DNA from: a virus
IMG/VR virus record: IMGVR_UViG_3300050821_001428
Coordinates: 32,001-96,000 of that record
Length of the DNA stretch: 64,000 nt
Reading direction: 5' to 3' (one strand)
Positions 2,931-22,009 of this stretch are shown piece after piece. Position 1 is the stretch's first letter. Each line of letters opens with the position of its first letter. The notes below the pieces were generated by a model that did no database searches, was not told the origin of the DNA, and saw only the letters and a program-made list of their open reading frames with translations. The position numbers and the translations under genes are program-made.

Positions 2931-5900
2931 TTAGCGTCTACCGCGCGAATTTATTCGATTCCCGCCACCGTTCCTGCGCATACCAATAGATCCTCGCGCC
3001 GGATTGCCGCCAGATCGTTCGGCGCGGGAGCGTTCTATATTACCTTGTGAATAATAATAGCTACCATCAGTGTTCATAGGCATTGGGGCACCATTTGGAT
3101 AATTATTTTGTCCCATACCATACCCTCCAGGTGCGCCGCCGACCACTGATGCTTGAGATAACCGCTCACGCATAGTCTGAATCTGTAGATTACCTAGTAG
3201 TGCCCATACTACATCGATTACAGCATCTGCCATATCCTTGGTTTGTACCGGGCCGAGGTCTTGTTTGTCTACGCGGGGGAATTTACCACTAGTTTGAACC
3301 TGCTGTAAGAACTTTAATTCTTCTTTCGAAGTATAACTGTCGATTTCCTCATCATTTGGAGCATGTACTAATCCTTGATACAAGGCTGTTTTAAATACCT
3401 CGCATTTCTTCCAGTTTAACTCCGCAGTTGTAGGTCGCACATAGACCTGACAAGTAATATTTTCTTTATGTAACCTATCTTGAATATCCTGTAATGGGGA
3501 CGAGCTATTATGACTAATGATACCATTAGCTACAAATAGTTCTGGGCCGGGTACAACAAGATCAAAACAATTTGCCGTAGACTCTACAATTGAATCAATA
3601 CGGAAATATTGTAAATCTCCTTCTCTATTCAACTTGGATCTTTTACCAACATCCTTACGACGGCTAATTTGATCTACAATGGCAGATAGTTTATGATTTT
3701 TTCTATCAGAGCAGAAACCAATCTTTTTATGGAATTCTAGAATGTCTAAACCGAACATTTTGACACGCCATTCTTGCTGAGGGGTGCCCTTATAAGTGCT
3801 TGCCGCCCCATTCCAAATAGTCGAATATATTCCTAAATTTAACAATAACTGTTGAATACCCTTGGCTAATGCAGCGCTTCTGGTACTACATCCCACAATT
3901 TCATCATTGTGTCTGGAATTAACAGCCCAACCATCACCTTCAAAATAAGCCTTTAAAAAGTTTACGATTACTGATTCTGGGGATTGAAAAATAGCCCAGG
4001 GCACCTCTTTGATATAGGAGTCACCAAAGCATCCTAACTGCGTGAACATTTTAGAGATATATCCCGATGCAGCAATTGATCCATACATAGTGTCAATCTG
4101 TCCGCCTTGAGGTGTTGTATTATGCTTTAGTTCATACCTATATGACCAATCGCCCCCAAAGGTTCTCTCTGCCGCATCCTTATACATATCTAAATAGGTT
4201 TTATCTGAGTTACTAAAACATATATTGGATTCATTAACATAACCTTCGGCTGTTAGCGCCCCCAGTATAAATCCAATATCTTCATTTAATTGTGTGGGGT
4301 ACAAACAACCTTTACGCCTAGAATGCTGTCTCTTCCAATCCAAAACAGCATTATAAGCTAATTTTTCGGTATCAAATCTTCCAATTGTGATTTGATGGTT
4401 GTTTTTGGAGACATTCGCAACCCAATGTTGTTTCGTCTCTGGATTATAACTGACACCTACATATTTAGAACTACCAGAGCCAGTTGGGTGATATTTTTTA
4501 ATATCAACATAGTTTGTTGCTGTCACGTTGTTTTTGCGCACAGCAACATAATCACCCTTTTCAATTTCAGCAATTTCTAACCATTCCCACTTATTGGATT
4601 TATGCCAAGGCTTTATTTTGTTCTTACGAACCCAAAGTCTATGGTCAGTGGTTCCTTCTATACTGTATCCAGGTTTGGTTGTAAGGATTCTCGTTGGCAC
4701 ATGACCTCTGTTGTAAATCTCAGTGGCAGTCACTATCCCTTCCATCGTTTGTACTGGTATATTAATAGTTTTGGTTTTACCTACAGGTAATTCGCCAGCT
4801 AGCTCTTTCAGTGTTTTATTACCACCAATGGTTGGAATCAAAGTGTTTTCATTGAGACATTGGTGTTGGTCCATGGTAATTTCGAATGGATGGAAAATCT
4901 TAGCATAAGTAATAATTTCATCAATAATAGGTGCCCAACGGATAACCTTATTTGGCTGCTTAGAAGGATTCCATCGTTTTATTAAATCGAATACGCAGTG
5001 TTCATTATCTAGACCGGTGACCGGATCGGGCAGGTATTCAATGTGTCCAATGGCAAATCCAAATCCAGCGGTGGTAGAAGAAGGGTCCAAGTGGAATTTA
5101 TAACGATGAAAGCCTGTGTTAATACCGACACCATAGTTGGTAGAAAATGGTTCGTATCCCAACACCATGTCTCCATTCGGCTGGCGCACCAAGCCTATTG
5201 GACGACCATTATACATGCGATCTACCATTGATGGATTTAACCAAGCTTCAGAGATTTCAGCAAATTTACCACGACGCTCAACCTTGTAGGTTTCGGGATC
5301 GGCTGCTTCGGAAGCTCGCGCCTGAATAATAGCGGCCTTATCCTCTTGGCTGAATAACGGACGATCCTGTTCATCCACCTCATCGGGATTCCAATCAGGA
5401 GACACTGTAACCATCTTACCGAGCATCTTGCCTCTGGTACGTGGTTTATATTGTGATTTATAGTAACGATATCCTTCAAACAAAGCCCATGATGGTCCTT
5501 GGAATACAAGACGACGAGGATCACCATTGATTCTTTGATCTGCCAGGTCACTATCGTCGCCCTGAAGCTCGATAGTCATTAGGTCTACAGGCCGGGTCTG
5601 ATCAAATGGCATTAGTCCTAATTCATATAGATCGTGAAACATTCCAACCTTAGAATAAGGTGATGAATTAATGAATAATAATCCATCGGTACCGAACTGA
5701 TCGAGCGATGGACCAGCCGCATTATATACCTCACCAGCCGATGACTTGCTTTCACCAGCGATCATGTGGGCAGCCTCATCGATCGTGACACAATTATGCG
5801 TAATAATCATATCATCAGTAACATATAATCCATTCACATTTGAAACCGTAATACATTGTTGTACGGCCTCTCCTATATATTCAACGTTAACAAGAGCACG

Positions 5901-7547
5901 TCGGCGTCTACTATAAAATGCATAAGGTTTTTGACGAAGTAATTTACGTTGACATCTAAACAAAGGATATTGTCTTAAATCACTAATGCATATCTCGTAA
6001 ATTGGCAGAGGGGACCTAATTACCTTATCTTCTACATATGAAATATTAGGACTAATAGGACGAGAATGTATAGTCGCGTATCCTCCTAGACTACGTACTA
6101 ATTCAACTGTATCTAGCGCTAGTTGATAGGACGTTGTACCTAATTTAATTGCTGAATCTTTTGAGATAGTACCGTCTGTATCTAAAAGTCCCTGGAGTAT
6201 AGATAATCTCTCATCAAATGATCCTCGTAAATATTGTTCCGGTATGAATTTATACTGTCCCGAATGTTTAGATAAACCTAATTGGTGAATAGCATTTCGC
6301 ACCTGATTGAGATGCGTAGGTCCGGTTTTTTTATTAGATTTAACAATTCTGAATTGAATAAGTTCATTAGGATTCTGGATTAGTTCGTGACCATCGGGTA
6401 AAGCCTTACGTACTTCTTCGACAATATCGTTATCTAAATTATAAAAAGCTACACCCGATCTTCCTGAGAAGCTTCCATCTCCTAATAAAGCTCCCAATAA
6501 ATAGGGATCTAGCGGTAACTTCTGAGTATCATACTGTATCACTGGTGCTTGGGGAAGTGCCCACTTATAGTAATCGGGCTTATTACCCCCAGCTTTTTTG
6601 GTTAAATCATTTGCAAATTCTAAAATGGTTTTGGTCTTACCTATATGTGTTTTACGAGGTTGATACAATGTCCATAAATGATCTGGCCCACATGTTGTGG
6701 AGGACCCGTCACTCATAGTTACACGATAGGTGGGTTGTATACCTCGCGGATGTATGTGGGTCACATGTTGTGATTTTCCATCAGAACCTATGATTTCATC
6801 ACCTATTTGTATCTCGCCCATAGTGGTCCAACCATATGGGGTAAGAATTTTGGCATCTAGAGGTTGGGCCATCGTTGCCGATCCACGTAACGTACCGGCA
6901 TTAGCTGCTAGAGCATTACCTCTAAGTCGCGCCTGATCTTTTTTAAAAGTCTGTCCTCTAGCTTTGGCTGATGAAATCTCCCTAATATCGGCCGGTGTCA
7001 TAATACGAATCTCTGTTTCAAGAGAATCAGCGATATATGGTTGGAAAGCTTTATTAGACTCGATACGAGCAACCATGTCGGCGTACTGGAACTTCTTTGC
7101 CTGGGATTCCGAACCAGCAATACATGAGAAATATATTTCCTTCTTGCGGTCAATACCGTAGTATTCACCAGGATTACCAAGCTGGAGCGTTGTCCAGAAT
7201 TTATATGCCATTGAAGTGCCGGTGGTAAACCCCTTAGATGCACGTCGCCCGACCGCCATCTGAATCTCACGGAAATGAGGATATCCATGAGATCGTAGAT
7301 AATCTCTACGTTCGCGGATATTAGGGGAGATAGTTATCTCTGATCCGTTGCGTCCCCCGTTGATCCACTCGGTTAGCACATCCTCTTCCGCGCCTGTCAT
7401 TTCCTCTAAAAAGATTAACTTCAAAAGGACTAGCTGACGAGGATAAAGCGCGATTCCGGCATAATCATCAGACTCAGTGAATTCTTCAATACCAACCCTT
7501 TTGGGCGCTAGTTGATCAATGTTATCTAGTAAACCTAATACACTCAT
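2931..7547 (-). CDS. terL: Terminase large subunit with two inteins
   Basis: Walker A-like GRRASKG, Walker B VTIDEAAH, nuclease HLDPSS and terminal KDMADAV; two embedded Hint/LAGLIDADG segments. Confidence 0.9.
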   Translation of the reverse strand: MSVLGLLDNIDQLAPKRVGIEEFTESDDYAGIALYPRQLVLLKLIFLEEMTGAEEDVLTEWINGGRNGSEITISPNIRERRDYLRSHGYPHFREIQMAVGRRASKGFTTGTSMAYKFWTTLQLGNPGEYYGIDRKKEIYFSCIAGSESQAKKFQYADMVARIESNKAFQPYIADSLETEIRIMTPADIREISSAKARGQTFKKDQARLRGNALAANAGTLRGSATMAQPLDAKILTPYGWTTMGEIQIGDEIIGSDGKSQHVTHIHPRGIQPTYRVTMSDGSSTTCGPDHLWTLYQPRKTHIGKTKTILEFANDLTKKAGGNKPDYYKWALPQAPVIQYDTQKLPLDPYLLGALLGDGSFSGRSGVAFYNLDNDIVEEVRKALPDGHELIQNPNELIQFRIVKSNKKTGPTHLNQVRNAIHQLGLSKHSGQYKFIPEQYLRGSFDERLSILQGLLDTDGTISKDSAIKLGTTSYQLALDTVELVRSLGGYATIHSRPISPNISYVEDKVIRSPLPIYEICISDLRQYPLFRCQRKLLRQKPYAFYSRRRRALVNVEYIGEAVQQCITVSNVNGLYVTDDMIITHNCVTIDEAAHMIAGESKSSAGEVYNAAGPSLDQFGTDGLLFINSSPYSKVGMFHDLYELGLMPFDQTRPVDLMTIELQGDDSDLADQRINGDPRRLVFQGPSWALFEGYRYYKSQYKPRTRGKMLGKMVTVSPDWNPDEVDEQDRPLFSQEDKAAIIQARASEAADPETYKVERRGKFAEISEAWLNPSMVDRMYNGRPIGLVRQPNGDMVLGYEPFSTNYGVGINTGFHRYKFHLDPSSTTAGFGFAIGHIEYLPDPVTGLDNEHCVFDLIKRWNPSKQPNKVIRWAPIIDEIITYAKIFHPFEITMDQHQCLNENTLIPTIGGNKTLKELAGELPVGKTKTINIPVQTMEGIVTATEIYNRGHVPTRILTTKPGYSIEGTTDHRLWVRKNKIKPWHKSNKWEWLEIAEIEKGDYVAVRKNNVTATNYVDIKKYHPTGSGSSKYVGVSYNPETKQHWVANVSKNNHQITIGRFDTEKLAYNAVLDWKRQHSRRKGCLYPTQLNEDIGFILGALTAEGYVNESNICFSNSDKTYLDMYKDAAERTFGGDWSYRYELKHNTTPQGGQIDTMYGSIAASGYISKMFTQLGCFGDSYIKEVPWAIFQSPESVIVNFLKAYFEGDGWAVNSRHNDEIVGCSTRSAALAKGIQQLLLNLGIYSTIWNGAASTYKGTPQQEWRVKMFGLDILEFHKKIGFCSDRKNHKLSAIVDQISRRKDVGKRSKLNREGDLQYFRIDSIVESTANCFDLVVPGPELFVANGIISHNSSSPLQDIQDRLHKENITCQVYVRPTTAELNWKKCEVFKTALYQGLVHAPNDEEIDSYTSKEELKFLQQVQTSGKFPRVDKQDLGPVQTKDMADAVIDVVWALLGNLQIQTMRERLSQASVVGGAPGGYGMGQNNYPNGAPMPMNTDGSYYYSQGNIERSRAERSGGNPARGSIGMRRNGGGNRINSRGRR
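3507..4859 (-). mobile_element. Intein 2 in TerL (451 aa) with LAGLIDADG endonuclease and an AP2-like insert
   Basis: Starts CLNENTLI, block B GTTDHRLW, ends ISHN followed by S. Motifs ILGALTAEG and LKAYFEGDG. Confidence 0.9.
5793..6869 (-). mobile_element. Intein 1 in TerL (359 aa, Ala1, class 3-type) with LAGLIDADG endonuclease
   Basis: Starts AQPLDAKILTP, ends ITHN followed by C. LAGLIDADG motifs LLGALLGDGS and LQGLLDTDG. Removal gives GSATM-CVTIDEAAH. Confidence 0.9.
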
Positions 7548-9833: not shown

Positions 9834-9886
9834 ACACTTTACGTTGTTGTATTAGGAAAAACTTATGAGTCGCGCCTGAAACTAAG

Positions 9887-9955
9887 TAGCGGTAGCAGGA
9901 ATCGAACCTGCGTCTATTCCGTATGAAGGAATTTGCCAACCATAGGCTTACCGCC
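9887..9955 (-). tRNA. tRNA-Met(CAT), elongator or Ile2 type
   Basis: Anticodon arm ATTCC-TTCATAC-GGAAT, T loop TTCGATT, short D arm. Confidence 0.8.
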
Positions 9956-9960
9956 AAATA

Positions 9961-10031
9961 AGCGTCTAGTCAGGATCGAACTGACATACTTCGGGTGGAA
10001 GCCGAATTCTCTACCATTGAGATATAGACGC
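9961..10031 (-). tRNA. tRNA-Gly(TCC)
   Basis: TTCGG-CTTCCAC-CCGAA arm; acceptor GCGTCTA/TAGACGC. Confidence 0.9.
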
Positions 10032-10074
10032 GAAGGATAGCGTGCTAGGTCGTTAACACTTCGCCCACATCATA

Positions 10075-10148
10075 AGCTAAGGGAGAGAATCGAACTCTCG
10101 CAACCATACTTACAAGGTATGTCACCCTACCAACAGGGAGTCCTTAGC
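10075..10148 (-). tRNA. tRNA-Thr(TGT)
   Basis: CATAC-CTTGTAA-GTATG arm; acceptor GCTAAGG/CCTTAGC. Confidence 0.9.
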
Positions 10149-10151
10149 GAA

Positions 10152-10462
10152 TTTTCCTAGCTCCTATTAGCCGCCGTTCTGGTTTATGCTAACATCTGTC
10201 TCGGGTTACCCCGGCCACGGCATTATCCGTAAACGTGGTCTATCTCCACGATGGCTGCCCTCTACCTTGTGACCTTAGTTTCCCTTAGGTCAGCATCTTG
10301 AGGTCATATCATATGCCGACTAGCTAGGTTCAAACGGATTTCCCCTCCCTGATCTAGTCTCATCTTTACCGGCTTGATTAGGGCCGATCCCCTTTCAGGG
10401 ACACGATAAGGCGAACTTCCTCGATGGATTGGTTACCGCCGCGTTAGCTCGGAACTATGAAA
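10152..10462 (-). ncRNA. rnpB: Putative RNase P RNA
   Basis: CR-I GAGGAAGUUCGCC and CR-V ACCAGAACGGCGGCUAAU form P4 with a bulged U. P1 UAGUUCC/GGAGCUA. P2 GCUAAC/GUUAGC preceded by CR-IV-like ACAGAU. Confidence 0.8.
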
Positions 10463-10464
10463 TT

Positions 10465-10911
10465 TTAATACCATCCGTGGGCGTAATGAAATGCAAGTGC
10501 CCTAGAAGGGCTTTTATACCTTTCGGTCACATAGTTACCGAAGCCAATCAATTGTCCCAAAACGGTTTTGGGACTTCCGCCATATGCATAGTATTGCTTC
10601 CAACTAGCAAATTGGGCCGAACCAGCACAACCGCTTTGCGAATTATAAGCATTTATATTGACATCACTTGGTGTTGAACTCGATTCCATATACAATATCA
10701 CCCACGCATCATATACCTCGGTATCATTCCAATGATGACTTTTAGCCACGATATCCATTGGTGATAAAGTCTTATGAGTCTTATGATATCTGTACTTATG
10801 TACATTAGTCTTGTTGACCCATTTAAATGGATGAGTTACATGTTGATGTTGATGATTATTATGAAACGGTGATAATGTAATCGCCGCGATTGTTAGAATA
10901 GTAGCAAACAT
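10465..10911 (-). CDS. Secreted lytic transglycosylase (SLT/Rpf-like C-terminus)
   Basis: Signal peptide, catalytic-like MESS, C-terminal YVTERYKSPSRALAFHYAHGWY like actinobacterial small transglycosylases. Confidence 0.7.
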   Translation of the reverse strand: MFATILTIAAITLSPFHNNHQHQHVTHPFKWVNKTNVHKYRYHKTHKTLSPMDIVAKSHHWNDTEVYDAWVILYMESSSTPSDVNINAYNSQSGCAGSAQFASWKQYYAYGGSPKTVLGQLIGFGNYVTERYKSPSRALAFHYAHGWY

Positions 10912-11042
10912 AAGCCTTCCATCCGTAGATTTTGTCGTACCTTTACTTACCTAGTCACCGATTGGATTCGGCTCTTTATACCTTAGACTCACGGACATCT
11001 ACGGAAGAGTGGAATATACTCCTTTTATTTTATTTTACACCA

Positions 11043-11116
11043 TACTCCCACCAGGACTTGAACCTGGAACCGTTCGCGTATAAGACGAATGCACTAACCA
11101 ATTGTGCTATAGGAGT
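11043..11116 (-). tRNA. tRNA-Ile(TAT)
   Basis: TTCGT-CTTATAC-GCGAA arm; full cloverleaf. Confidence 0.9.
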
Positions 11117-11143
11117 GAGAAACTGGGAGACTGAAATTGTAAG

Positions 11144-11218
11144 AGGGTAGTGTCGGATTCGAACCGACATAGGCTAGGATCACAACCTAGAACATTAGTC
11201 CAATTATGCTAACTACCC
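11144..11218 (-). tRNA. tRNA-His(GTG)
   Basis: CTAGG-TTGTGAT-CCTAG arm. Confidence 0.85.
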
Positions 11219-11229
11219 ACAAGCTACTA

Positions 11230-11300
11230 AGCACCTAGCCGGAATCGAACCGGCGTCTACTGCCTGGCAAGCAGTTATAATACCATTATACCATAGATGC
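11230..11300 (-). tRNA. tRNA-Gly(GCC)
   Basis: ACTGC-TTGCCAG-GCAGT arm. Confidence 0.9.
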
Positions 11301-11304
11301 GACA

Positions 11305-11376
11305 CGCCCTCGGAGAGAATCGAACTCTCGCCCCCGCCATCGGAAAGCGGTGCTCTGGCCGCTGAGCTACAAGGGC
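11305..11376 (-). tRNA. tRNA-Arg(CCG)
   Basis: CCGCT-TTCCGAT-GGCGG arm. Confidence 0.9.
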
Positions 11377-11431
11377 ATACTCGGCGTTTTTATCTATTAT
11401 GAGAACGCCCAAACTCACAGACTATATTTAC

Positions 11432-12028
11432 TTACTGACTACTCTTGATGTCATTGAAGAGCGTCGTAGCATTACCCACCAGCTTTGGACTGTTGGTAGC
11501 ATTGTCCCAAATAGCTGGACCAAAAACTACTCTTACAAAGCCCTCCCAATATTGGGCATACGTCCGACCTGTGCTCGGATCGACACACATGACATAAGTT
11601 CCACTCGATGGTCCAGAGTATACCCCATTTGGGTCCATCTGTGCTAGAACATTACTGCCAGGAACACTGCCATTATTCGGATCACGAACCTGCATTTGTG
11701 GATTACTTAGCTCTGTATCAGATGCAACCGGTGCTCCAATCGATGAACACGAACCCTCTGGGTGAGGATCACCCATGTTCATAAAGAAGGTAGTAGACTG
11801 TACGCCATTAGCCTGGGCTGTCTCAATATCAATCAATTCTTGACGAATTTGAGAATGGGTGAACACGGGAATCGGTTGGTTATTAACTAGATTAAACGAA
11901 TCTTGATTCTGGGCACGCGATTCTCGCTGGGCGGCGGCATTGACATTATTACCTCCACATGCCGTAATTGCCATGGTAAGTACAATTACGATAGGCACAA
12001 CAATCCATCTGGTCTTAAACTTAGACAC
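11432..12028 (-). CDS. Putative lipoprotein
   Basis: Signal peptide with lipobox ITAC. Confidence 0.7.
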   Translation of the reverse strand: MSKFKTRWIVVPIVIVLTMAITACGGNNVNAAAQRESRAQNQDSFNLVNNQPIPVFTHSQIRQELIDIETAQANGVQSTTFFMNMGDPHPEGSCSSIGAPVASDTELSNPQMQVRDPNNGSVPGSNVLAQMDPNGVYSGPSSGTYVMCVDPSTGRTYAQYWEGFVRVVFGPAIWDNATNSPKLVGNATTLFNDIKSSQ

Positions 12029-12030
12029 TA

Positions 12031-12444
12031 TTATTTGGCTCCGGAATAACTTGATGATGGACTCACCGCACCATCAATACAGTTGATATAAATAAATTCA
12101 CTTTGTTGGGCGTTCAACGTTCCGCCATGTGCTTGCTGCGCCAACTCGCACAGTTGGCTCAAATCCGCATATTGTTCCGCCTTTAGAGCAATTACTTCAT
12201 TACCTTGTACGTCTGGGGACTGAATTTGTGCTGTAATGGTTTCAATGTTCTGAAACTGACCATCAATCTCTGATGCGAGATTGGACTGATATCCAATGGA
12301 ATTTCGGATCATCAGAGTTGTACGATTCTCGTTTTGATTGTTAAACCACCAACCAAGTTGCCAACCACCAAATACAATTACAGCAATTATTAGGATTGCT
12401 GTAAACGATCCACCGACAATCACCATCTTTTTAATCTTCTTCAC
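12031..12444 (-). CDS. Membrane-anchored hypothetical protein
   Basis: N-terminal transmembrane helix; abuts the lipoprotein gene. Confidence 0.65.
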   Translation of the reverse strand: MKKIKKMVIVGGSFTAILIIAVIVFGGWQLGWWFNNQNENRTTLMIRNSIGYQSNLASEIDGQFQNIETITAQIQSPDVQGNEVIALKAEQYADLSQLCELAQQAHGGTLNAQQSEFIYINCIDGAVSPSSSYSGAK

Positions 12445-12529
12445 TAATCGTTTACCTTTATTTTAGTTGACCTACACTTCTACAGTGTAGCAGACAAATG
12501 TGATGGCTGAAATGACTGAAAAGTCAAAG

Positions 12530-12602
12530 TACCGGGAGCGAGAGTCGAACTCGCGCACATTAGATTAAAAGTCTACTGCTCTGGCCACTGAGCTACCCCG
12601 GC
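12530..12602 (-). tRNA. tRNA-Lys(TTT)
   Basis: TAGA-CTTTTAA-TCTA arm. Confidence 0.9.
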
Positions 12603-12605
12603 TTA

Positions 12606-12678
12606 AGCCCTTGACAGGAATTGCACCTGCGACACACGGTTTCGTAGACCGACGCTCTCTCTACTGAGCTACAAGGGC
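12606..12678 (-). tRNA. tRNA-Arg(ACG)
   Basis: CGGT-CTACGAA-ACCG arm; T loop TGCAATT. Confidence 0.85.
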
Positions 12679-12731
12679 TGGTTGGAGAGATTAATAGCTC
12701 TCTCCGGGCTATGATTCTTATTCTATCACGG

Positions 12732-13433
12732 TTAGGCTAGAGTTTCAACCCGATCGTAATCGTACTCCGATAGAGAGTATGCACCCTTGGTAGAAAGGAA
12801 CCCTCCTTTTACATGGTCGTGCATAATCTGTGCTTCGTATACCTGTCCTTCTTCTCCCGAAAGGGCTAATTCGTAAATCTTAGGATGCTCTTCCTTTAGT
12901 TCATCTAGCAACTTCTGGGCAAATATACGTTCATGATCCCTTAGATAAGGAACAATGCTCTTCCCGGTACCATCTCCACGGTAATGAAGGTCACGGTGCC
13001 GTCCGACGCACAGAGGAATCGTACAAACAGATCTAGCAGCATAGCTAACGTAGTTATCAAGCTCCTTCATAAGCCATCTAGGGATGAAGTGATGCCTAGT
13101 AATCCGACCTTCACATTCCCATCCATGTATAGCACAGATGCGGCAGGTTGGCTGGATTTGGGACTCGATCTTACGTAATCGGCGGCGTTCAAGAATCTCA
13201 GGAGGAACTACAATAGTATTAGAAGCTAACCTTAGACGAAATAAGACCTGCTTTTGTGTAAGCCCTTCATCCAATAGATCATCTAATTCTGCATCCTCAT
13301 AGTCGGCAAGAAGTTCCAATTGCTCTACTGTAGCCCGACTTTTTTGATCAAACCAAAAGACTTGGTTAGAACGCGGATCATCAAACCAACGAGCGCGAGA
13401 CATGAACTCTCCTTTCCTAAATTCGGGTTGCAA
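12732..13433 (-). CDS. HNH-type nuclease domain protein
   Basis: CRIC...ITRHHFIPR...TIPLCVGRHRDLH; likely start at MSRARW. Confidence 0.65.
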   Translation of the reverse strand: MQPEFRKGEFMSRARWFDDPRSNQVFWFDQKSRATVEQLELLADYEDAELDDLLDEGLTQKQVLFRLRLASNTIVVPPEILERRRLRKIESQIQPTCRICAIHGWECEGRITRHHFIPRWLMKELDNYVSYAARSVCTIPLCVGRHRDLHYRGDGTGKSIVPYLRDHERIFAQKLLDELKEEHPKIYELALSGEEGQVYEAQIMHDHVKGGFLSTKGAYSLSEYDYDRVETLA

Positions 13434-13435
13434 AG

Positions 13436-13508
13436 TACCGATACGGAGAATTGAACTCCGATTTACGCGCTGAGAACGCGCTGTCCTACACCATTAGACG
13501 ATACCGGC
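13436..13508 (-). tRNA. tRNA-Glu(CTC)
   Basis: CGCG-TTCTCAG-CGCG arm. Confidence 0.9.
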
Positions 13509-13856
13509 TTAGGTTGAATTTTTACTACTTTAGGTTCTTCATTAGCTTTCTTAATTTTTACAATCATCATCTACAATTCTATCCAGGGTAGATATATGTA
13601 TCTATAGCCAGATGTACAAGATTACGCCCCTGTTTAGCGCCGAGGGGCAAGGCGGAAGGACATGGCGGTAGCACCCAGCATACACTTATCCTCAGATTAT
13701 CCCCGCCTTTTCCGCACGGCATTAGGGACCATGAATTTCGTTACAGTTACAAGTACTCCCACGGCATACTGCCAGCCGCTCGTCGGATTAAGTTGTAATC
13801 CAATGACCTCTAGGTGGGGTTTCTACATTAATGATTCAATTAACACAAAAAGTTAA

Positions 13857-13930
13857 TACGTTGCCTCGGAGTCGAACCGAGATTTGCCGAATTAAGAGTT
13901 CGGAACTTTATCCATTTAAGTTAGCAACGC
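13857..13930 (-). tRNA. tRNA-Lys(CTT)
   Basis: CCGAA-CTCTTAA-TTCGG arm. Confidence 0.9.
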
Positions 13931-13994
13931 TTATTCCTAGCTACTAGGGGTTGAAGGCTTATTTTATTACTTCGTTAATAAGTACTTTTAAAAG

Positions 13995-14077
13995 TACCCC
14001 AGGTGGGACTTGAACCCACAATCTCTTACGAGCAACCGATTTTAAGTCGGTTTGTTATACCAATTCACAACTGGGGC
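13995..14077 (-). tRNA. tRNA-Leu(TAA)
   Basis: ACCGA-CTTAAAA-TCGGT arm, long variable arm. Confidence 0.9.
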
Positions 14078-14083
14078 GAGAAG

Positions 14084-14154
14084 CTGGAGAATAGGGATTC
14101 GAACCCCAATAGACGGTGCCAAAAACCGTCGTCTTGCCTTTAGACGATTCTCCA
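14084..14154 (-). tRNA. tRNA-Gln(TTG)
   Basis: ACGGT-TTTTGGC-ACCGT arm. Confidence 0.9.
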
Positions 14155-14170
14155 GTGATTTGTAAAATAC

Positions 14171-14461
14171 TTAATTGTTTAGTTTTCCAGGTTCAACGTT
14201 TGTCGTTGTCGCTGAATCTAGTATAGCAACTTCCTGATCAGAGTCAAGCTTTTTTGCGGGTTTGGGGGTTTTGGTTTTTAGCAACAACTCTTCAAGGATA
14301 TCTCGCTGACGCTGATTATACGGTTGGTTCTTAGTATTGAGAACTATAACACGATAATCGGCAGGGACATCTTGTGATTGACTCCATTTAGTCGCCTTTG
14401 CCGGGTCATGAGTTGTGTAACATGACACGCCACTCTTATAAAATACGCTGTAAATCTTCAT
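14171..14461 (-). CDS. Hypothetical protein
   Basis: 96-aa ORF filling a gap between tRNAs. Confidence 0.5.
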   Translation of the reverse strand: MKIYSVFYKSGVSCYTTHDPAKATKWSQSQDVPADYRVIVLNTKNQPYNQRQRDILEELLLKTKTPKPAKKLDSDQEVAILDSATTTNVEPGKLNN

Positions 14462-14502
14462 ATCATATATTATGTACCGAACTTAGGGTTCGCCATATTT
14501 GA

Positions 14503-14577
14503 TTGCCCCTCTAGGGGTCGAACCTAGATAACTCCTGGTTCAGAGCCAGGCGAGTCTGCCAATTCCTCCAAGGGGCA
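14503..14577 (-). tRNA. tRNA-Gln(CTG)
   Basis: CCTGG-CTCTGAA-CCAGG arm. Confidence 0.9.
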
Positions 14578-14583
14578 TTAGTA

Positions 14584-14659
14584 TGGCAGAGACAGGATTC
14601 GAACCTGTGATCTCCTGCGTATGAGACAGGCGGGGACGGCCTTACTCCCCTACTCCGCG
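14584..14659 (-). tRNA. tRNA-Met(CAT), initiator-like
   Basis: CCTGT-CTCATAC-GCAGG arm. 5' CGCGGAG with unpaired C1 (formylation determinant), but lacks the three G-C anticodon-stem pairs. Confidence 0.85.
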
Positions 14660-14717
14660 TCGAGCCAAGTTGATATCGCTCAACTTGGAAAGCGCAAGTC
14701 TGTTGCTAGATTATAGC

Positions 14718-15053
14718 TCAGACCGCATGGGTGCCTTCGACACCACGGGCTTCACGCGCGGTGGTGCGCTCTTGTAACTTATCAAGAGCCTCCCCAAGCA
14801 GTACGAGTGCCTGCGCGTTGTAATCGCAGGCGAACTTGGTTGATTGGTAGAACTCAATCCGGTCGACAGCGGCGGCGATCACGCCCTCTACAAACGCACC
14901 GTTCGGCTCTAGGCGGACCCCGCCGCGCGTGAGCATGTGTTCGGCAAGCGGCCCGTTCTGCCATCCGATCGTAAAGCCGACGCCGTAGGTCGTGCCACCG
15001 GCTGGATTTCCGTCGTCGTCAGTGAAGTGATGGCTCTCGATTGTCTGCAACAT
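14718..15053 (-). CDS. tad1: Tad1-like anti-defence nucleotide sponge
   Basis: WQNGP...NGAFVEGVIAAAVDRIEFYQ..KFACDYNAQAL..LGEAL..LQERT..REARGVEGT follows the Tad1 pattern as recalled. SD AGGAG at 15062-15066; the track's N-terminal extension overlaps a tRNA. Confidence 0.7.
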   Translation of the reverse strand: MLQTIESHHFTDDDGNPAGGTTYGVGFTIGWQNGPLAEHMLTRGGVRLEPNGAFVEGVIAAAVDRIEFYQSTKFACDYNAQALVLLGEALDKLQERTTAREARGVEGTHAV

Positions 15054-15124
15054 CACAGTAACTCCTTTTCTCTCGATTAACGAAATATTGTCAGTATATC
15101 TTTCATCTTGATTGAATTGTACAG

Positions 15125-15208
15125 TGCCGATGGAGGGAGTCGAACCCTCACGTCTGTCAAGACACTGGGATTTGAAGCCAGCATGTATACCAATTTCATC
15201 ACATCGGC
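15125..15208 (-). tRNA. tRNA-Leu(CAA)
   Basis: Loop TTCAAAT with C31-C39 mismatch, long variable arm. Confidence 0.85.
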
Positions 15209-15277
15209 TTGTCTGGTTGCGTGATTTTATCAAGCTAGCATCATATTATTACACGCCATTACCTGCTGCCACGACCA

Positions 15278-15316
15278 TAGCACCACGGAGAATCGAACTC
15301 CGATTACAAGATTGAA
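15278..15316 (-). pseudogene. 3'-half remnant of a tRNA (probably Glu TTC)
   Basis: TTCAATCTTG-TAAT-CGGAG-TTCGATT-CTCCG-TGGTGCTA with no 5' half. Confidence 0.6.
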
Positions 15317-15323
15317 CTATTTA

Positions 15324-15397
15324 TAGCTCCAGCGGGGTTCGAACCCGCAATCTTTTCCTTGAAAGGGAAACGAGATAAACCATTACTCTATGGAGCC
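15324..15397 (-). tRNA. tRNA-Glu(TTC)
   Basis: TTTCC-CTTTCAA-GGAAA arm. Confidence 0.9.
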
Positions 15398-15522
15398 AAG
15401 ATTTTCTAGTACGACCTACAAGTATAGCAGAGGGCGCTCATACAGTGTCAATTTCCGCATCGCTTGTATCTAGGTGCCATATTTTCATCCACAAAGAAAT
15501 ACCACCGACTCTTTTGATGAAT

Positions 15523-15794
15523 TTATCAGGCCGGATTACGACCCTACAACGCTCCAAGGTTTGAGGTTATCGCACGATCCGCCCGGTTCCTGCGCTCCCT
15601 CTTAGTAGGCCCAGATACCCTGGGTTCGGTGCGAGAATTTTGGCCCGGCGTGTTCCGGATCAAGTCTCGCCCGACAGCACTGTGCCGGTTCGTCATGAAA
15701 ATCATGTAGCACATGTGTTGGGCGGCAAGTTCGATAACTTCAAACCTTGGAGCGTTGTAGGGGAAGCTTTTCAAGGCTCGCATTTTCCTGACAA
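15523..15794 (-). ncRNA. Unknown structured RNA with a 31-bp stem and 44-nt identity to the resolvase gene
   Basis: Inverted repeat 15542-15572 / 15732-15762 (30/31), outer 8-bp stem 15523-15530 / 15787-15794. 15686-15729 is identical to 38080-38123. Strand inferred from flanking tRNAs. Confidence 0.7.
15686..15729 (+). repeat. 44-bp exact direct repeat, copy 1 (copy 2 at 38080-38123)
   Basis: CGGTTCGTCATGAAAATCATGTAGCACATGTGTTGGGCGGCAAG is present at both loci. Confidence 0.97.
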
Positions 15795-15796
15795 CA

Positions 15797-15838
15797 GTCC
15801 AGATGAGAGGAATCGAACCTCCACCGGGGGTTAGCCCG
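15797..15838 (-). pseudogene. tRNA 3' fragment (T arm plus acceptor strand)
   Basis: GAGG-TTCGATT-CCTC-TCATCTGGAC with no matching 5' half. Confidence 0.5.
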
Positions 15839-15841
15839 TAA

Positions 15842-15931
15842 CGGAAGGTACGGGGATCGAACCCGTAAGGCACTTTCGTGCTCGTCACTTTTCGAGAGTG
15901 GTCCCATCGCCAACCATTGGGTTGCCCTTCC
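15842..15931 (-). tRNA. tRNA-Ser(CGA)
   Basis: CACT-CTCGAAA-AGTG arm, long variable arm, G73. Confidence 0.9.
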
Positions 15932-16047
15932 AAGAATTCATCATTCATTGCATGTTCATATGTGCAATTTATAGTTGATCTACCGTCAAGTTCGCATGGC
16001 ATAACGGTTTAGTAAACCGCTCCAATACCGTTATGGTTATATTTCCT

Positions 16048-16117
16048 TGGCACCAGTGAGGGGACTTTCACCGCCTATCTGCCCGTGGGCTATTCTAATA
16101 ATTAAACTACACTGATG
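16048..16117 (-). ncRNA. tRNA-like RNA lacking an anticodon loop
   Basis: Acceptor CATCAGTG/CACTGGTG plus CCA, D-like arm, stub GCCC-AC-GGGC, T-like arm. Confidence 0.55.
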
Positions 16118-16120
16118 TAG

Positions 16121-16206
16121 CGGAGGGACAGGGAATCGAACCCTGTGGACGCTCATCACGTTTTATACCGTTTCCAGCGATATTCCTAGCCATTTGGGTT
16201 CCCTCC
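16121..16206 (-). tRNA. tRNA-Ser(GGA)
   Basis: TATCG-CTGGAAA-CGGTA arm, long variable arm. Confidence 0.85.
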
Positions 16207-16649
16207 AAGTGTACGTTCCCGATGACAATTTAACACACTACTTCGCACTTGGCTATTTCTTCAAACAGCATAACTTCAGAGCGTCGAGTCGGGGAGCAGC
16301 ACTGCGTGACGCGCGCGTCCCACCTGCTGCTCGCGGATCATCATCGCGGACGGCATCTCGACGCACGGCAACCGACGACAACGGCTCCTGGGAGCCGTAC
16401 TGATCGAAGAAGCCGATCCGAATGCGCTTCTGGAGCGCACGATCACCGTAGTCAGTCATCAGAACGTGAAGTGTATGCCGTTGTCGGAATCCCGCCAGCC
16501 ACAGCTAGTTTACCAGAACTCATACGCGTAAGCCCTGGTCGAGAATAATATACATCACCGGATTCATATCTACAGTATAGCATATCAGACTAGAGTCGCC
16601 AACTTATGGTGACTCCTCATGCTCCTTCCGCCACAAGGTGGATGAGTCA

Positions 16650-16741
16650 CGGATAGAGTGGGGGTCGAACCCACAAGGGCTTATTCATCCTCGTCGCTTT
16701 TCAAGAGCGATGCCGTCGGCCAACTATCGGCTTGCCTATCC
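16650..16741 (-). tRNA. tRNA-Ser(TGA)
   Basis: TCGCT-CTTGAAA-AGCGA arm. Confidence 0.9.
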
Positions 16742-16746
16742 ATAAA

Positions 16747-16829
16747 AAGCCAGTGTGAGAATCGAACTCACTCCCCGTTATGGGCGATACGTGTTGCAGA
16801 CGCCGGTGTTACCATTCCACCAACTGGCC
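16747..16829 (-). tRNA. tRNA-Cys(GCA) with long variable arm
   Basis: GCGT-CTGCAAC-ACGT arm, U73, variable hairpin CCC-ATAAC-GGG. Confidence 0.8.
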
Positions 16830-16913
16830 GTTATACCCCAATTCCCCAAAAGGGCTGCTGCCGGTCGAGCTAATATTAGCCTTTACCTACTCGGGGTTTG
16901 ATAGGTAGCAAAG

Positions 16914-16986
16914 CTGCTCAGATAGGACTTGAACCTATAACCATCGCCTTAACAGGGCGTTGCACCGCCAATTGTGCTACTGAGCA
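16914..16986 (-). tRNA. tRNA-Asn(GTT)
   Basis: CGCC-CTGTTAA-GGCG arm. Confidence 0.9.
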
Positions 16987-17173
16987 TTGTTATTCCATCT
17001 TCAACTTCCATGTGACAATTTGAACATAATAAAATACATTTACTAGCTTCTGCTCTCATTTTAGCTAATCCAGGGATTTTACCCTTCCATGCTAAATGGA
17101 ACAACTTCGTAGTGGGATCTATATGGTGAAAATGTAAGGCTCTCATACATTTATCATATCCGCAAATCACACA
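16949..17173 (-). pseudogene. 5'-truncated HNH endonuclease
   Basis: CVICGY...LHFHHIDP..K...KCILLCSNCH. An in-frame TAG lies just upstream and the 3' end runs into tRNA-Asn. Confidence 0.65.
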
Positions 17174-17203
17174 GATTGTCCATAAAACCTATGATCCGTT
17201 AAG

Positions 17204-17293
17204 CAGAGGGTAGGGGATTCGAACCCCTGATACACGTCTAAGGTGTATGACGGTTTAGCAAACCGTTCTCGTCAGCCACTTGAGTAACCCTCT
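17204..17293 (-). tRNA. tRNA-Ser(GCT)
   Basis: ACGGT-TTGCTAA-ACCGT arm. Confidence 0.9.
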
Positions 17294-17300
17294 GAGACTA

Positions 17301-17379
17301 CAGTTCGATGACCACTGGTACACAATTAAGGTACGTCAATTTAGCAAACTGATGCAATCGGCCTCTCTGCCAACCTTCC
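17301..17379 (-). pseudogene. tRNA-Ser(GCT) 5' remnant
   Basis: GGAAGGTTGGCAGAGAGGCCGATTGCA-TCAGT-TTGCTAA-ATTGA plus variable arm; T arm and acceptor 3' strand are destroyed. Confidence 0.7.
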
Positions 17380-17383
17380 AATA

Positions 17384-18046
17384 CTATACTTCAATCATTA
17401 CCGGTGAATTAAGCGGTTGGTAACGTGCATCCATTATAGCAACATTCCAAACTTCGGTTTCGCCTAATTCGTAATGGCCGAATCCTTCATGAATATGCCC
17501 ACAAATGACATGCTTAGGTTTAATATCCCTAATCATCATGTCACACTGTGCCGATCCCACATGAGGATGTAGTGCGCTGATAACCTTGTCCGCTACTCCA
17601 TAAGGAGGTCCGTGGGTTATAACTACATCCGTATCGGTATCTACGGCCTTATACTTCTCGCTTAGAGTAGCATTATCTCCGTAAAACGCCCAACCCTTTA
17701 GATTGGGAACCCATGGAATACCATAGAATCGAATATCATCTACAATGATAGCCTCATCCTCAAGATAAGTCCATCCTACATCGTAGGTAGTGTCCTTTGC
17801 ATCACCAAATACTGCGTATCTATTCTCCAGAGCGAAATCATGGTTACCAGCGATTACCAATCGGTGTTTTGCTGGCATTTTCATGGTCCAGTCTGAAAAT
17901 TCATTTCTAATCCAACTAGTACAACGATCGGTATCACGATCGTACCGAATCGGACTAATATCCCCCGCTACCACCAGAATATCGGATTCTGGAACCGCTA
18001 CAGGCAAATAGCCATGTAGATCCGAAAGAGCACAAATTGTTGTCAT
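17384..18046 (-). CDS. Calcineurin-like metallophosphoesterase
   Basis: SDLHG, AGD, GNHD, THGPP and GHIHE motifs. Confidence 0.9.
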   Translation of the reverse strand: MTTICALSDLHGYLPVAVPESDILVVAGDISPIRYDRDTDRCTSWIRNEFSDWTMKMPAKHRLVIAGNHDFALENRYAVFGDAKDTTYDVGWTYLEDEAIIVDDIRFYGIPWVPNLKGWAFYGDNATLSEKYKAVDTDTDVVITHGPPYGVADKVISALHPHVGSAQCDMMIRDIKPKHVICGHIHEGFGHYELGETEVWNVAIMDARYQPLNSPVMIEV

Positions 18047-18057
18047 TTTTCCTTAAG

Positions 18058-18427
18058 TGGACCTGCTCGCATCGAAGCGAGGTGGCCCGTAATCGTCATC
18101 AGAGATTTAGTATAGCATCTTTCTAGGACAAGAGTTACTTCAAGGACAAGCAGAGCTTGTCTCCACCAACTTAGTCTACATCTTAGGGGCGACTAGTAAC
18201 CCCGATTCCTATGCTTCTGTTGACAGGTGCATAGACCCCGTTCTGGCTATTTAAGCAAGAACAGAAAGAACTTCACTTGCACGGATCTCGCTCTTTGCAG
18301 AGAAAGCGCCAGCAGGGATGTTCATAGGACGATATGATTCGCCAGTTAATTGTTTTGCGAGATTTAGGTGTCTCAAAACCGATGCAATTCTTAATTCGTT
18401 TTTACGAGATCGAAACCTTTCAGGCCC
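18058..18427 (-). ncRNA. ssrA: tmRNA
   Basis: 5' GGGCCTGAAAGGTTTCGA; 3' T arm CTCGC-TTCGAT-GCGAG then CAGGTCC-A (G3-U70, Ala identity). Tag frame after TTAACT at 18343-18251. Confidence 0.88.
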
Positions 18428-18462
18428 GTTGAAGAGAGGCAGCTTGTAATTGTAATTTGCTA

Positions 18463-18882
18463 TCATTTTTTACGTTGGTCGATACGTCTACACTCTTTGC
18501 ATTTATGTCTAGGTCTAAATGACCCATCTTTATTTGGCTCAGTATGTAAACTAAAATTATCCACAGGCAAAAATTGCTGATGCCCATGACACCACCACAT
18601 CCCTTCGGGATAATTGTTTTTATGTGGTGCTTGATTTCTTTTAATATTACAATTAAGATGTGAAAATGCAATGTTATCTAAATCCCAAAATAGATCATCA
18701 GGATTTTGAAGCCAAGGGATTTTGTGTTCAACAGATAATTCCTGAGCACACTCAATCGGTTTTTCACATACAAAACAAATATCTCTTCCGCTCTGTTGTA
18801 CAAGTTGGAAAAATATTTGTTTTCTGAGTCGAGCATAGGCAGTTGTAGTATACATACCTAACATGCTACGATAGCGTTCCAA
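18463..18882 (-). CDS. HNH endonuclease (start uncertain)
   Basis: CFVC...LSVEHKIPW...LDNIAFSHLNCN plus C-terminal Zn finger. The in-frame upstream ATG (18903) is followed by AAA TAA. Confidence 0.7.
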   Translation of the reverse strand: MERYRSMLGMYTTTAYARLRKQIFFQLVQQSGRDICFVCEKPIECAQELSVEHKIPWLQNPDDLFWDLDNIAFSHLNCNIKRNQAPHKNNYPEGMWWCHGHQQFLPVDNFSLHTEPNKDGSFRPRHKCKECRRIDQRKK

Positions 18883-18917
18883 AGATTTAGATTCTTATTT
18901 CATCATCTATTATATCT

Positions 18918-19008
18918 ATGGACTATTACATTTCTGTAACTATAACGGTCCTAAGTAGAAATCCTACCTACACGGTAATAGCGTAACATAACTTCGAACG
19001 CTGCCCAT
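18918..19008 (-). ncRNA. Putative small RNA with a loop complementary to 23S rRNA helix 69
   Basis: Nested stems AUGGGC/GUCCAU, UAUUAC/GUAAUA, AUUUCU/AGAAAU. The loop contains the reverse complement of GTAACTATAACGGTCCTAAG (18936-18955). Confidence 0.6.
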
Positions 19009-19024
19009 TTTTGCTACCTCTCAG

Positions 19025-19096
19025 TAGACAGAGAGGGATTCGAACCCTCAACCTCCCGCATGTCAAGCGGGTGCGCTACCATTGCGCTATCCGTCT
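19025..19096 (-). tRNA. tRNA-Val(GAC)
   Basis: CCCGC-TTGACAT-GCGGG arm. Confidence 0.9.
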
Positions 19097-19112
19097 GATT
19101 ACTACTTGTAAG

Positions 19113-19185
19113 TACCCAATCTGTGAATCGAACACAGTCAATAGGGGCATGTAAAGCCCTTGCCGTCCCATCTGGCTCATCGGGT
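19113..19185 (-). tRNA. tRNA-Val(TAC)
   Basis: GGGC-TTTACAT-GCCC arm. Confidence 0.9.
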
Positions 19186-19305
19186 ATGGTGGGCAAGCAA
19201 GCTTTTGAACTACACTTGCCCTTGGCCGCATCCGGGAGGATTTCAACCTCGCCTACAGAACTAAATCGGATGCTTTATTGAGGGTGGGTGGTCCCCCATC
19301 CTCAG

Positions 19306-19377
19306 CGGTTCTAGAGAGAATTGAACTCTCGTATGAGGCTTGACAAGCCCCCGTAATATCCACTATACGATAGAACC
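19306..19377 (-). tRNA. tRNA-Asp(GTC)
   Basis: GGGGC-TTGTCAA-GCCTC arm. Confidence 0.9.
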
Positions 19378-19386
19378 TAATTGTAA

Positions 19387-19457
19387 CACCCCATCAAGGT
19401 AACGCTCCCTGGTCTTCGGGTTTGGAAGCCGACGTTTTGCTATTAAACTAATGAGGT
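19387..19457 (-). tRNA. tRNA-Trp(CCA)
   Basis: Loop TTCCAAA, atypical T loop AGCGTTA, G73. Confidence 0.75.
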
Positions 19458-19839
19458 TTTAAGAGGCCAAGACCATAGGTAATCTACCTTCCAAGCACTA
19501 CCTGGGTCTTAATGACCTACAGTAATAATAAACACTGATCGCACCCCTGAGTAGCAGTCAATAAGGAATTGTCCACATAGTGCCAGCTATATAGGTTTCA
19601 GAGAATACAGCCCTGGCAGGCTAATCTCTTGCGATGGCGAGTTATGTACTGGTCGCCACAGTAAGACTGCATTCGGATTTGAGCCGAAATGCGCTACCCA
19701 TCGTAGCATGCAGCCGAAAAATAAGTAGGCATCCTCTGTTCTAGACCAGAGCCTTTTGGTTATTCTTGAGCGCCTATGTCAAGGTTTTCCATATCTAGGA
19801 CTTTAAACCGACAGAGCTTTTCCCTTGAACCTACTTATA

Positions 19840-19911
19840 AGCCAACTATGAGAGTCGAACTCATTCTTTCTACTTACGGGGTAGACGTGCTTCCGTTGGC
19901 ACTCAGTTGGC
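19840..19911 (-). tRNA. tRNA-Thr(CGT)
   Basis: TCTAC-CCCGTAA-GTAGA arm (C33). Confidence 0.85.
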
Positions 19912-19920
19912 GGCGGGCTA

Positions 19921-19993
19921 TCAGAGATGAGAGATTTGAACTCCCGATAAATGCTCCCAAAGCACTTGTGTTACCAGACTACACTAATCTCTG
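19921..19993 (-). tRNA. tRNA-Pro(TGG)
   Basis: AGTGC-TTTGGGA-GCATT arm. Confidence 0.9.
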
Positions 19994-20226
19994 TTTTGGT
20001 CCCAATGTATCGCCCTATTGGCTTGACGACTCCTAGAACATTGGGACCATAGACCCATACCGAAAGGTATAAAATAGGGCCTATTTCGTTATATAGGTGC
20101 TATATAAGGTTGGGTGGAGAATTACCTCACTCGCTTACTCGCTACTTGTTCGCGACAGGCAAAACCCCAACTTTATACGTGAATTTCGTTGGCAACCTGT
20201 TACTTTCACTTTCTTCTAATGACCCA

Positions 20227-20255
20227 TGGAAGATAAGGGAGTCGAACCCCTTCGC
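20227..20255 (-). pseudogene. 3' half of an interrupted tRNA-Ala
   Basis: AGGGG-TTCGACT-CCCTT-ATCTTCC-A; pairs with the GGGGGAT 5' half starting at 21164. Confidence 0.65.
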
Positions 20256-20294
20256 ACACTAATTAATATCTTAGTCCCCATCATAAATAGATAG

Positions 20295-20371
20295 TGGAGG
20301 ATATCGGATTCGAACCGATGCAAAAACCCACGGTGCAAACGTAGTGCTCTCCCAAACTGAGCTAATCCCCC
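20295..20371 (-). tRNA. tRNA-Ala(TGC)
   Basis: CTACG-TTTGCAC-CGTGG arm, G3-U70. Confidence 0.9.
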
Positions 20372-20388
20372 AAGAAGGATAATAAAAA

Positions 20389-21120: not shown

Positions 21121-21164
21121 TCCTGCGTGCAAAGCAGGTGTGTTCCCATTAGCACTAATCCCCC
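21121..21164 (-). pseudogene. 5' half of an interrupted tRNA-Ala(TGC)
   Basis: GGGGGATTAGTGCTAATGGGAACACA-CCTGC-TTTGCAC-GCAGG, ending exactly at the HNH stop codon. Confidence 0.75.
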
Positions 21165-21168
21165 TAAG

Positions 21169-21241
21169 TACCACCTCTGGGATTCGAACCCAGACTTGTA
21201 CGCTCCTAAGGCGTATGCCTCTGCCGTTGGGCTAAGGTGGC
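21169..21241 (-). tRNA. tRNA-Leu(TAG), short variable arm
   Basis: TACGC-CTTAGGA-GCGTA arm; 73 nt. Confidence 0.85.
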
Positions 21242-21247
21242 TAATAT

Positions 21248-21934: not shown

Positions 21935-22009
21935 TTAAGGAATCGAACCTTACTGTCATAAAGATACGGATTTACAGTCCGCTACCAACACCAGTTGGAC
22001 ATAATGAGC
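21928..22009 (-). tRNA. tRNA-Tyr(GTA)
   Basis: GCGGA-CTGTAAA-TCCGT arm. Confidence 0.9.

Follow-up and report, generated by a model that had tools for sequence, protein, structure and literature searches.

A probable RNase P RNA, reduced and divergent, within the tRNA array of a phage

RNase P RNA is regarded as one of the hallmark ribozymes of cells. Naturally reduced versions of it exist, among them the Mycoplasma-type minimal bacterial RNase P RNAs (RPRs) and the type T RNAs of Pyrobaculum. Plastid RPRs are described in one paper (PMC4264200) as defective without protein. Phages, in the textbook view, rely on the enzyme of the host, as T4 does for the processing of its pre-tRNAs (review PMC11143913), and in a historical review of RNase P from 2024 they appear solely as sources of substrates. 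The tRNA clusters of phages also carry other non-coding RNAs, such as tmRNA and GOLLD (PMC6582537); the paper concerned deals with host RNase P RNA and with the phage-derived GOLLD and Sar RNAs. Among about 8.4 million full texts, which do not include subscription journals, we came across no account of an RNase P RNA encoded by a phage or any other virus; broader searches yielded only papers in which rnpB figures as a host gene.

Here we describe a 311-nt stretch of DNA from a soil phage that, judging from its sequence, is very probably a homologue of RNase P RNA. We favor the reading, to which we assign a probability of about 0.7, that it is a reduced, divergent RNA derived from bacterial type A and carried by the phage in a co-oriented tRNA array. 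That it is also an active pre-tRNA-cleaving ribozyme seems likely, albeit with less assurance. Like tmRNA and GOLLD, it is a large structured RNA that lies among phage tRNA genes and in their orientation. Its fold and function would be unrelated to theirs, and Rfam finds neither of the two in the candidate stretch at E <= 10. We found no earlier description of a family of shrunken, altered-core RNase P RNAs in many large phages, such as the one to which we assign it. A viral family of this kind would extend the translation-related functions of large phages by a ribozyme.

The locus and the parts of the RNA

The stretch of DNA analysed here (the window, 64,000 nucleotides) comprises bases 32001-96000 of a 144-kb IMG/VR phage record that is ~90% complete. 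Its genes include those for a DnaE-type polymerase, a DnaB-like helicase, ribonucleotide reductase, terminase and baseplate proteins. A 1538-aa ORF (2931-7547, minus strand) matches terminase large subunits and also has stretches resembling HNH endonucleases and primases/helicases, a composition suggesting that inteins or homing endonucleases have been inserted into the terminase gene. ARAGORN and Rfam place 30 tRNA genes, all on the minus strand, at 9886-22234. An encoded 3'-CCA is missing from 29 of them, and the base at -1 is A in 13, C in 11, U in 6 and G in none.

The RNase P-like RNA (10152-10462, minus strand) is co-oriented with this array and sits between tRNA-Ile and tRNA-Thr. It is ORF-free and homologous to L099/G003 and ~54 other RNAs; on both strands, no ORF of at least 30 aa occurs within 10150-10428. 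The gene for tRNA-Thr(UGU) (10075-10148, minus strand) follows immediately downstream. Upstream, an orphan ORF of 148 aa (10465-10911, minus strand) has its stop 2 nt ahead of the RNA. This ORF has zero relatives among 5.8 billion proteins, and its PHROG matches are weak only, one being to a transglycosylase C-terminus (E 4.6e-5). Scans for promoters and terminators gave background level only.

The elements of the RNA, all on the minus strand, are given below in window coordinates, RNA position p being window position 10463-p. The ends are closed by P1, in which UUUC-A-UAGUUCC (10451-10462) pairs with GGAGCUA-G-GAAA (10153-10164) in 7+4 bp (UAGUUCC/GGAGCUA and UUUC/GAAA); the helix ends 4 nt ahead of tRNA-Thr, and it is found at the same place, with differing sequence, in nearly all members of the family described below. 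An unbiased search for the best duplex recovered P2 as the 7 bp between GCUAACG (10442-10448) and UGUUAGC (10188-10194). The 5' strand is followed by the family's conserved CGC, its region agreeing with the family consensus GAnCnnnCGC, and the 3' strand comes directly after J18/2. In a constrained fold, P3 is a hairpin of CGGCGG/CCAUCG with an 8-nt loop and one C.A mismatch (10422-10441), and three relatives (L155, L148 and L167) have CGGCGG/CCGUCG in the same place.

The catalytic core is assembled from a CR-I variant, GAGGAAGUUCGCC (10410-10422; RNA 41-53), and from CR-V with J2/4, ACCAGAACGGCGGCUAAU (10166-10183; RNA 280-297). RNA positions 46-54 and 287-294 supply the 5' and 3' strands of P4, with the pairs A46-U294, G47-C293, U49.G292, C50-G291, G51-C290, C52-G289 and C53-G288. 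One of U48/U49 forms the bulge, and the distal U54xC287 is mismatched. Beyond P4, the P5 strand UAUC (10405-10408) pairs with GAUA (10307-10310), a helix that reads CAUC/GAUG, CACC/GGUG or CUGC/GCAG in relatives. P5 encloses a remodelled specificity-domain region (10311-10404) of three stems: a hairpin capped by GAAA (RNA 62-75; loop 67-70), a second hairpin, and a third stem that holds the homologous block CGUUUGAACCUAGC. Its topology is the same in L099 and L144.

The 3' half of the RNA retains further landmarks. The 3' strand of P5, J5/15 (UGA) and the 5' strand of P15 (CCUC) are contiguous at 10300-10310, and GAUA-UGA-CCUC aligns without gaps to GAUG-UAA-CCUC of L155. P15 itself is CCUC/GAGG with AAGGUA; its GGUA loop, L15, and 3' strand GAGG (10259-10266; GGU at RNA 197-199) agree with the Rfam block CGGGUaggccGCU. 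Immediately before J18/2, in the place of P18, the constrained fold has the hairpin CGGG-GUAA-CCCG (10202-10213), and relatives have a tetraloop hairpin there as well (with GCGA in L099 and L097). The CR-IV-like junction J18/2, GAGACAGAUG (10193-10202), includes AGAUG; the family block AGAnA/GAUG is nearly invariant, and the Rfam consensus is AGAugAAUG. Thus P1, P2, P3, P4, P5, P15, the P18-like hairpin and J18/2 follow one another in type-A order, and in constrained folds the layout of the candidate is that of L099 and L144. An unconstrained fold is mildly better than those of shuffled sequences (z = -2.3).

What the original prediction had said of the fold stands. CR-I and CR-V do pair into P4 with a bulged U, an 8-bp helix on the minus strand; P1 and P2 close correctly and lie in canonical order; CR-I does deviate from the typical GAGGAAAGUCC; and the specificity domain is indeed divergent, with CR-II and CR-III not recognisable in it. 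The placement of the RNA inside a tRNA array was likewise borne out by the 30 minus-strand genes that surround the locus. The tmRNA that the prediction mentioned was not: within the window, neither ARAGORN nor Rfam at gathering score finds one.

A family of related RNAs in phage tRNA arrays

Rfam is silent on the candidate. At gathering score, cmscan of the window returned tRNAs only, and a scan of a 461-nt stretch at E <= 10 returned nothing RNase P-like. Across the phage's own genome, the bacterial type-A model RF00010, whose gathering score of 100 bits the candidate does not reach, found fragments of 6.9 and 5.1 bits (the better one on a tRNA), and RF00011 had no match. A check against the Rfam RNase P models, which had been proposed along with the original prediction, was therefore negative for this copy. 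By the criterion given with that prediction, this silence looked like refutation, and the matter was therefore left to be decided by whether the RNA is conserved in relatives. Direct routes to such relatives gave nothing: there was no match for the 894-nt gap by blastn against GenBank phages, for the exact pattern of the candidate alone, or in a DNA search of five related records, and anchoring on a single polymerase protein or on the 148-aa ORF retrieved nothing.

The polymerase of the phage has many relatives of 45-79% identity, the closest of which (79%, 68% and 65%) are on Logan contigs. Alignment of polymerases against IMG/VR led to G003, a complete genome of 160,765 bp with terminal repeats and a polymerase identity of 47-50%. 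Its RNA of 302 nt aligns to RF00010 over model positions 1-367 with 38.6 bits (E-values of 8.7e-12 per genome and 7e-11 when searched against the whole of Rfam). This alignment places P1/P2, a clean P3, CR-I, J18/2 and CR-V, with the specificity domain largely collapsed. The RNA is flanked by tRNAs on both sides, and its downstream neighbour is tRNA-Thr(tgt), as in the window. The two RNAs have in common the unusual GAGGAAGUUCG and six more blocks, all at near-identical positions. Among 50 more distant DnaE phages, RF00010 had 0 matches.

The CR-I and CR-V blocks common to the candidate and G003 furnished a search pattern: GAGGAAGUUCG, then 203-233 nt, then CAGAAnnnCGGCUA, with complementary bases at the variable P4 positions. 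The candidate carries this signature, and two of its three variable P4 pairs form. By arithmetic, the 22 bases and their spacing are expected by chance ~2e-7 times per 64-kb window, although the pattern was partly derived from the candidate, whose 22 bases are thus no independent evidence. Scanning IMG/VR gave 24 loci (20 real), and scanning metagenomes with a tightened pattern gave 51 (47 real). After deduplication the family comprises 55 distinct RNAs of 284-314 nt on phage or metagenome contigs, the candidate included. Its members have in common P1-P5, P15 with a GGU loop, a P18-like hairpin, J18/2 and CR-V, as well as the altered core of P4. In 185,579 species genomes we found no cellular copy at the 203-233-nt spacing; the four matches there (L172-L175) are on short MAG contigs, have non-complementary P4 bases and were set aside as chance. 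Because this genome scan was restricted to that spacing, full-length bacterial RNAs with a GAAGUUCG core may exist. A second search pattern produced chance matches to coding sequence, except for G003.

Scored with RF00010, the members form a continuum: 189, 178, 134, 63, 54, 49, 44, 42, 38.6, 28, 27 and 24.6 bits. The two best reside in phages of 332 kb and 177 kb and align through P1-P12 and P15-P18, missing only P13/P14. By blastn, the best member matched nothing among GenBank phages save a Salmonella rnpB in a mis-filed record. The remaining tested members are undetected by RF00010, including the candidate's nearest relatives (L144, L155, L148 and L167). About half of the family is thus invisible to Rfam, which implies that viral genomes are under-annotated for RNase P RNA. 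At 39 of the member loci tRNAs are present, and they are co-oriented with the RNA (33/33, 32/32, 29/29 and 27/27, for example), the single tRNA of L088 being the exception. The carriers span several lineages: among seven complete genomes, a close DnaE is found in G003 only, two have a distant one, and four have none.

In the family, P4, P5 and P15 covary. In gapless Rfam alignments, GAGGAAGUUCG / nnnCGGCUA replaces GAGGAAAGUCC / CCCGGCUUA position for position. Three P4 pairs are swapped compensatorily (A-U to G-C, G-C to U.G, and C-G to G-C), and neither the bulged U nor the length of the helix is changed. The P4 partners were identified from the established E. coli structure. At the variable distal pairs, 55/55, 54/55 and 48/55 members are paired, with 4-6 standard pair types at each. 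Further, unbiased duplex searches recover P1 and P2 in most members at fixed positions and with very different sequences. A strict layout of P5, a 3-nt J5/15, P15, GGU and P15' is present in 37 of the 55 members, compared with 9.5% of shuffled interiors; in the candidate the layout is realised by UAUC/GAUA, UGA, CCUC/GAGG and AAGGUA.

A formal count of pairs in P4, P5 and P15 was made on a 46-member alignment from which the candidate was excluded. Cells were paired at 94.6%, compared with 72.6% in shuffles and 32-46% with slid partners, and the covariation score was 0.533, compared with 0.135 in shuffles, none of 500 of which reached it. By helix, pairing amounts to 98.6% in P4, where three pairs covary, and to 96% in P5 and 81-86% in P15, both with covariation. 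The search pattern itself fixes five of the eight P4 pairs, which are hence uninformative, and the signal derives from the remaining eleven pairs.

Since the family had been gathered with a pattern partly derived from the candidate, we built profiles from the interiors between CR-I and CR-V with the candidate left out. Using nhmmer, the candidate's interior ranks first in the 64-kb window, with E 0.25 for a whole-family profile and 0.032 for a subfamily profile. A covariance model of ten subfamily interiors, which is mostly sequence and has five pairs corresponding to P5, finds a single significant match in the window: 10183-10392 on the minus strand, over the full model length, with 18.6 bits and E 8.1e-5. 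The next-best match has E 0.11. The E-values of this model are rough, owing to a shortened calibration.

These results bear on the simplest alternative, that RNase P-like motifs co-occur by chance in a non-functional spacer. The failure of the Rfam models to see the candidate is what such a coincidence would predict. Against it stand the syntenic homologue in G003, the covarying family, the independent match of the interior model and the very low chance expectation of the signature. We consider this reading effectively refuted. The original prediction of a phage-encoded RNase P RNA is, by the same token, supported by the G003 homologue, the family of ~55 RNAs, covariation and the interior match.

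Weak points, transcripts and possible function

The candidate does have weak points as a member of this family. Three changes count as helix-weakening: the C.A in P3, the U x C mismatch at the distal end of P4, and a J2/4 that reads CCAGAA in place of the near-invariant ACAGAA. Its specificity domain is without two motifs that L097 and L092 display, ACAGAAA and GGGUGAAA. The mismatches, the CCAGAA variant and the want of a recognisable CR-II or CR-III keep two rival explanations alive.

According to the first of these, the RNA does descend from a phage RNase P RNA but, in this phage, is no longer catalytic and persists as a spacer in the array. Decay of this kind would account for its undetectability by Rfam, for the mismatches in P3 and distal P4, for the A-to-C change in J2/4, and for an interior similarity to relatives that is modest (E 0.03 to 8e-5). 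However, the core helices and single-stranded motifs are all intact and in register, and the change in P5 relative to the relatives is compensatory (UAUC/GAUA versus CAUC/GAUG). Roughly half of the family is equally invisible to Rfam, including L155, L148 and L167, whose helices are flawless, and L122 combines the same CCAGAA variant with a perfect P4. We therefore judge a decayed relic to be improbable, and continue to favor a reduced RNase P RNA.

The region is represented in RNA libraries. Identical contigs from a 2018 soil metatranscriptome tile 10170-10597, with neighbouring genes patchily covered, and a contig from a soil RNA library (10447-10597) bridges the end of the 148-aa ORF and the start of the RNA. 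A leaf-litter metatranscriptome contig matches 10213-10282 (70 nt, from L15/P15 to P18) with three differences and then diverges; a related RNA thus occurs in the RNA library of a second habitat. The presence of the candidate region in these libraries is compatible with its transcription, but is no proof of it.

We propose that the RNA would be transcribed together with the tRNA array and freed by the processing of the tRNAs. The position of the G003 RNA between tRNAs, and of the candidate's P1 end 4 nt from tRNA-Thr, suggests this mode of release, in which the 3' end of the RNA would arise when RNase P cuts at the 5' end of tRNA-Thr. Once free, the RNA would fold into its catalytic core, borrow the host's RnpA, and cleave the 5' leaders off the phage's 30 pre-tRNAs. 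The outcome would be that host RNase P capacity is supplemented or replaced during infection. As the original prediction has it, the RNA might also mature a tmRNA or tRNA-like RNAs. The gene for the protein subunit, rnpA (PF00825), is absent from the ~90%-complete phage genome and from five complete genomes of the family, so the original remark that no rnpA is seen here holds across the whole ~90%-complete genome. An active enzyme would consequently need the host protein or act alone. Further, with only one of the 30 tRNA genes encoding CCA, the GGU loop would meet CCA-less precursors unless CCA were added first.

These last features can be turned to a second rival explanation, in which the RNase P fold serves another job. 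The RNA might be a decoy that captures pre-tRNAs or the RnpA of the host, or else a ribozyme whose targets are now other RNAs encoded in the array island, its changed P4 reflecting the new role. The lack of rnpA and of encoded CCA would suit such a role, as would the remodelled specificity domain and the replacement, throughout the family, of three pairs of a normally invariant P4 core. Yet the substitutions in P4 are compensatory and leave both its bulged U and its length as they were, and the J5/15 A, the GGU of L15, J18/2 and J2/4 are all retained. The association is, moreover, strictly with tRNA arrays, and equally short canonical-core copies in the arrays of other phages suggest the same job. 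We hold a change of role to be slightly less probable even than a decayed relic.

If the candidate is the RNase P RNA that we favor, a broader scheme may be entertained, although we advance it only tentatively. Large phages of many lineages might have a clade of minimal RNase P ribozymes to themselves, with three pairs of the supposedly universal P4 helix replaced. These RNAs would be cut from the array transcript by tRNA processing and act with host RnpA, giving the phage a tRNA maturation that is independent of the host ribozyme or insulated from it. Should this be true, such an activity could matter, for example, in infections during which the host's RNase P is in short supply, shut off or under attack.

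Comparison with known RNase P RNAs

The reduced cellular and organellar RPRs offer one point of reference. As in those RNAs, elements of the specificity domain have been lost or have shrunk in the phage family while the core is kept, and dependence on protein is likely to be stronger. The Mycoplasma-type, Pyrobaculum type T and plastid RPRs are, in contrast, products of cellular or organellar genes. To our knowledge, no naturally reduced RPR has this set of P4 substitutions or lies inside a viral tRNA array. With the phage family, dozens of "minimal" RNase P RNAs of ~300 nt made by nature would become available.

Closer in setting are 12 IMG/VR contigs (L176-L187) on which RNase P RNAs of 274-307 nt with the canonical core, GAGGAAAGUCC / GGCUUA, lie in tRNA arrays. 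Seven of the 12 pass RF00010, with 101-203 bits, and four are near tmRNA; one contig, L183, also carries a group I intron. These copies resemble the altered-core (GUUCG) family in being short and in lying inside co-oriented tRNA arrays, and differ from it in having kept GAGGAAAGUCC / GGCUUA. They are visible to anyone who runs Rfam on viral contigs, whereas the divergent half, the candidate among them, is invisible.

The nearest described relative is the bacterial type-A RNase P RNA (RF00010), exemplified by the M1 RNA of E. coli. The order P1-P2-P3-CR-I/P4-P5...P15 GGU, P18, J18/2, P2', CR-V/P4', P1' is common to both, the GNRA-type P18 loop and the bulged U of P4 are kept, and members of the phage family reach 134-189 bits with the type-A model. 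The phage RNAs are nonetheless shorter, at ~300 nt versus ~350-400, and P13/P14 are missing even in the best of them. They are phage-encoded inside tRNA arrays, and the candidate falls below any useful Rfam threshold. Their specificity domain is remodelled, and their core reads GAGGAAGUUCG / CGGCUA where the bacterial one reads GAGGAAAGUCC / GGCUUA. Because compensatory pairs have here replaced supposedly invariant positions, the family amounts to an experiment of nature on P4, the active-site helix of the type-A ribozyme.
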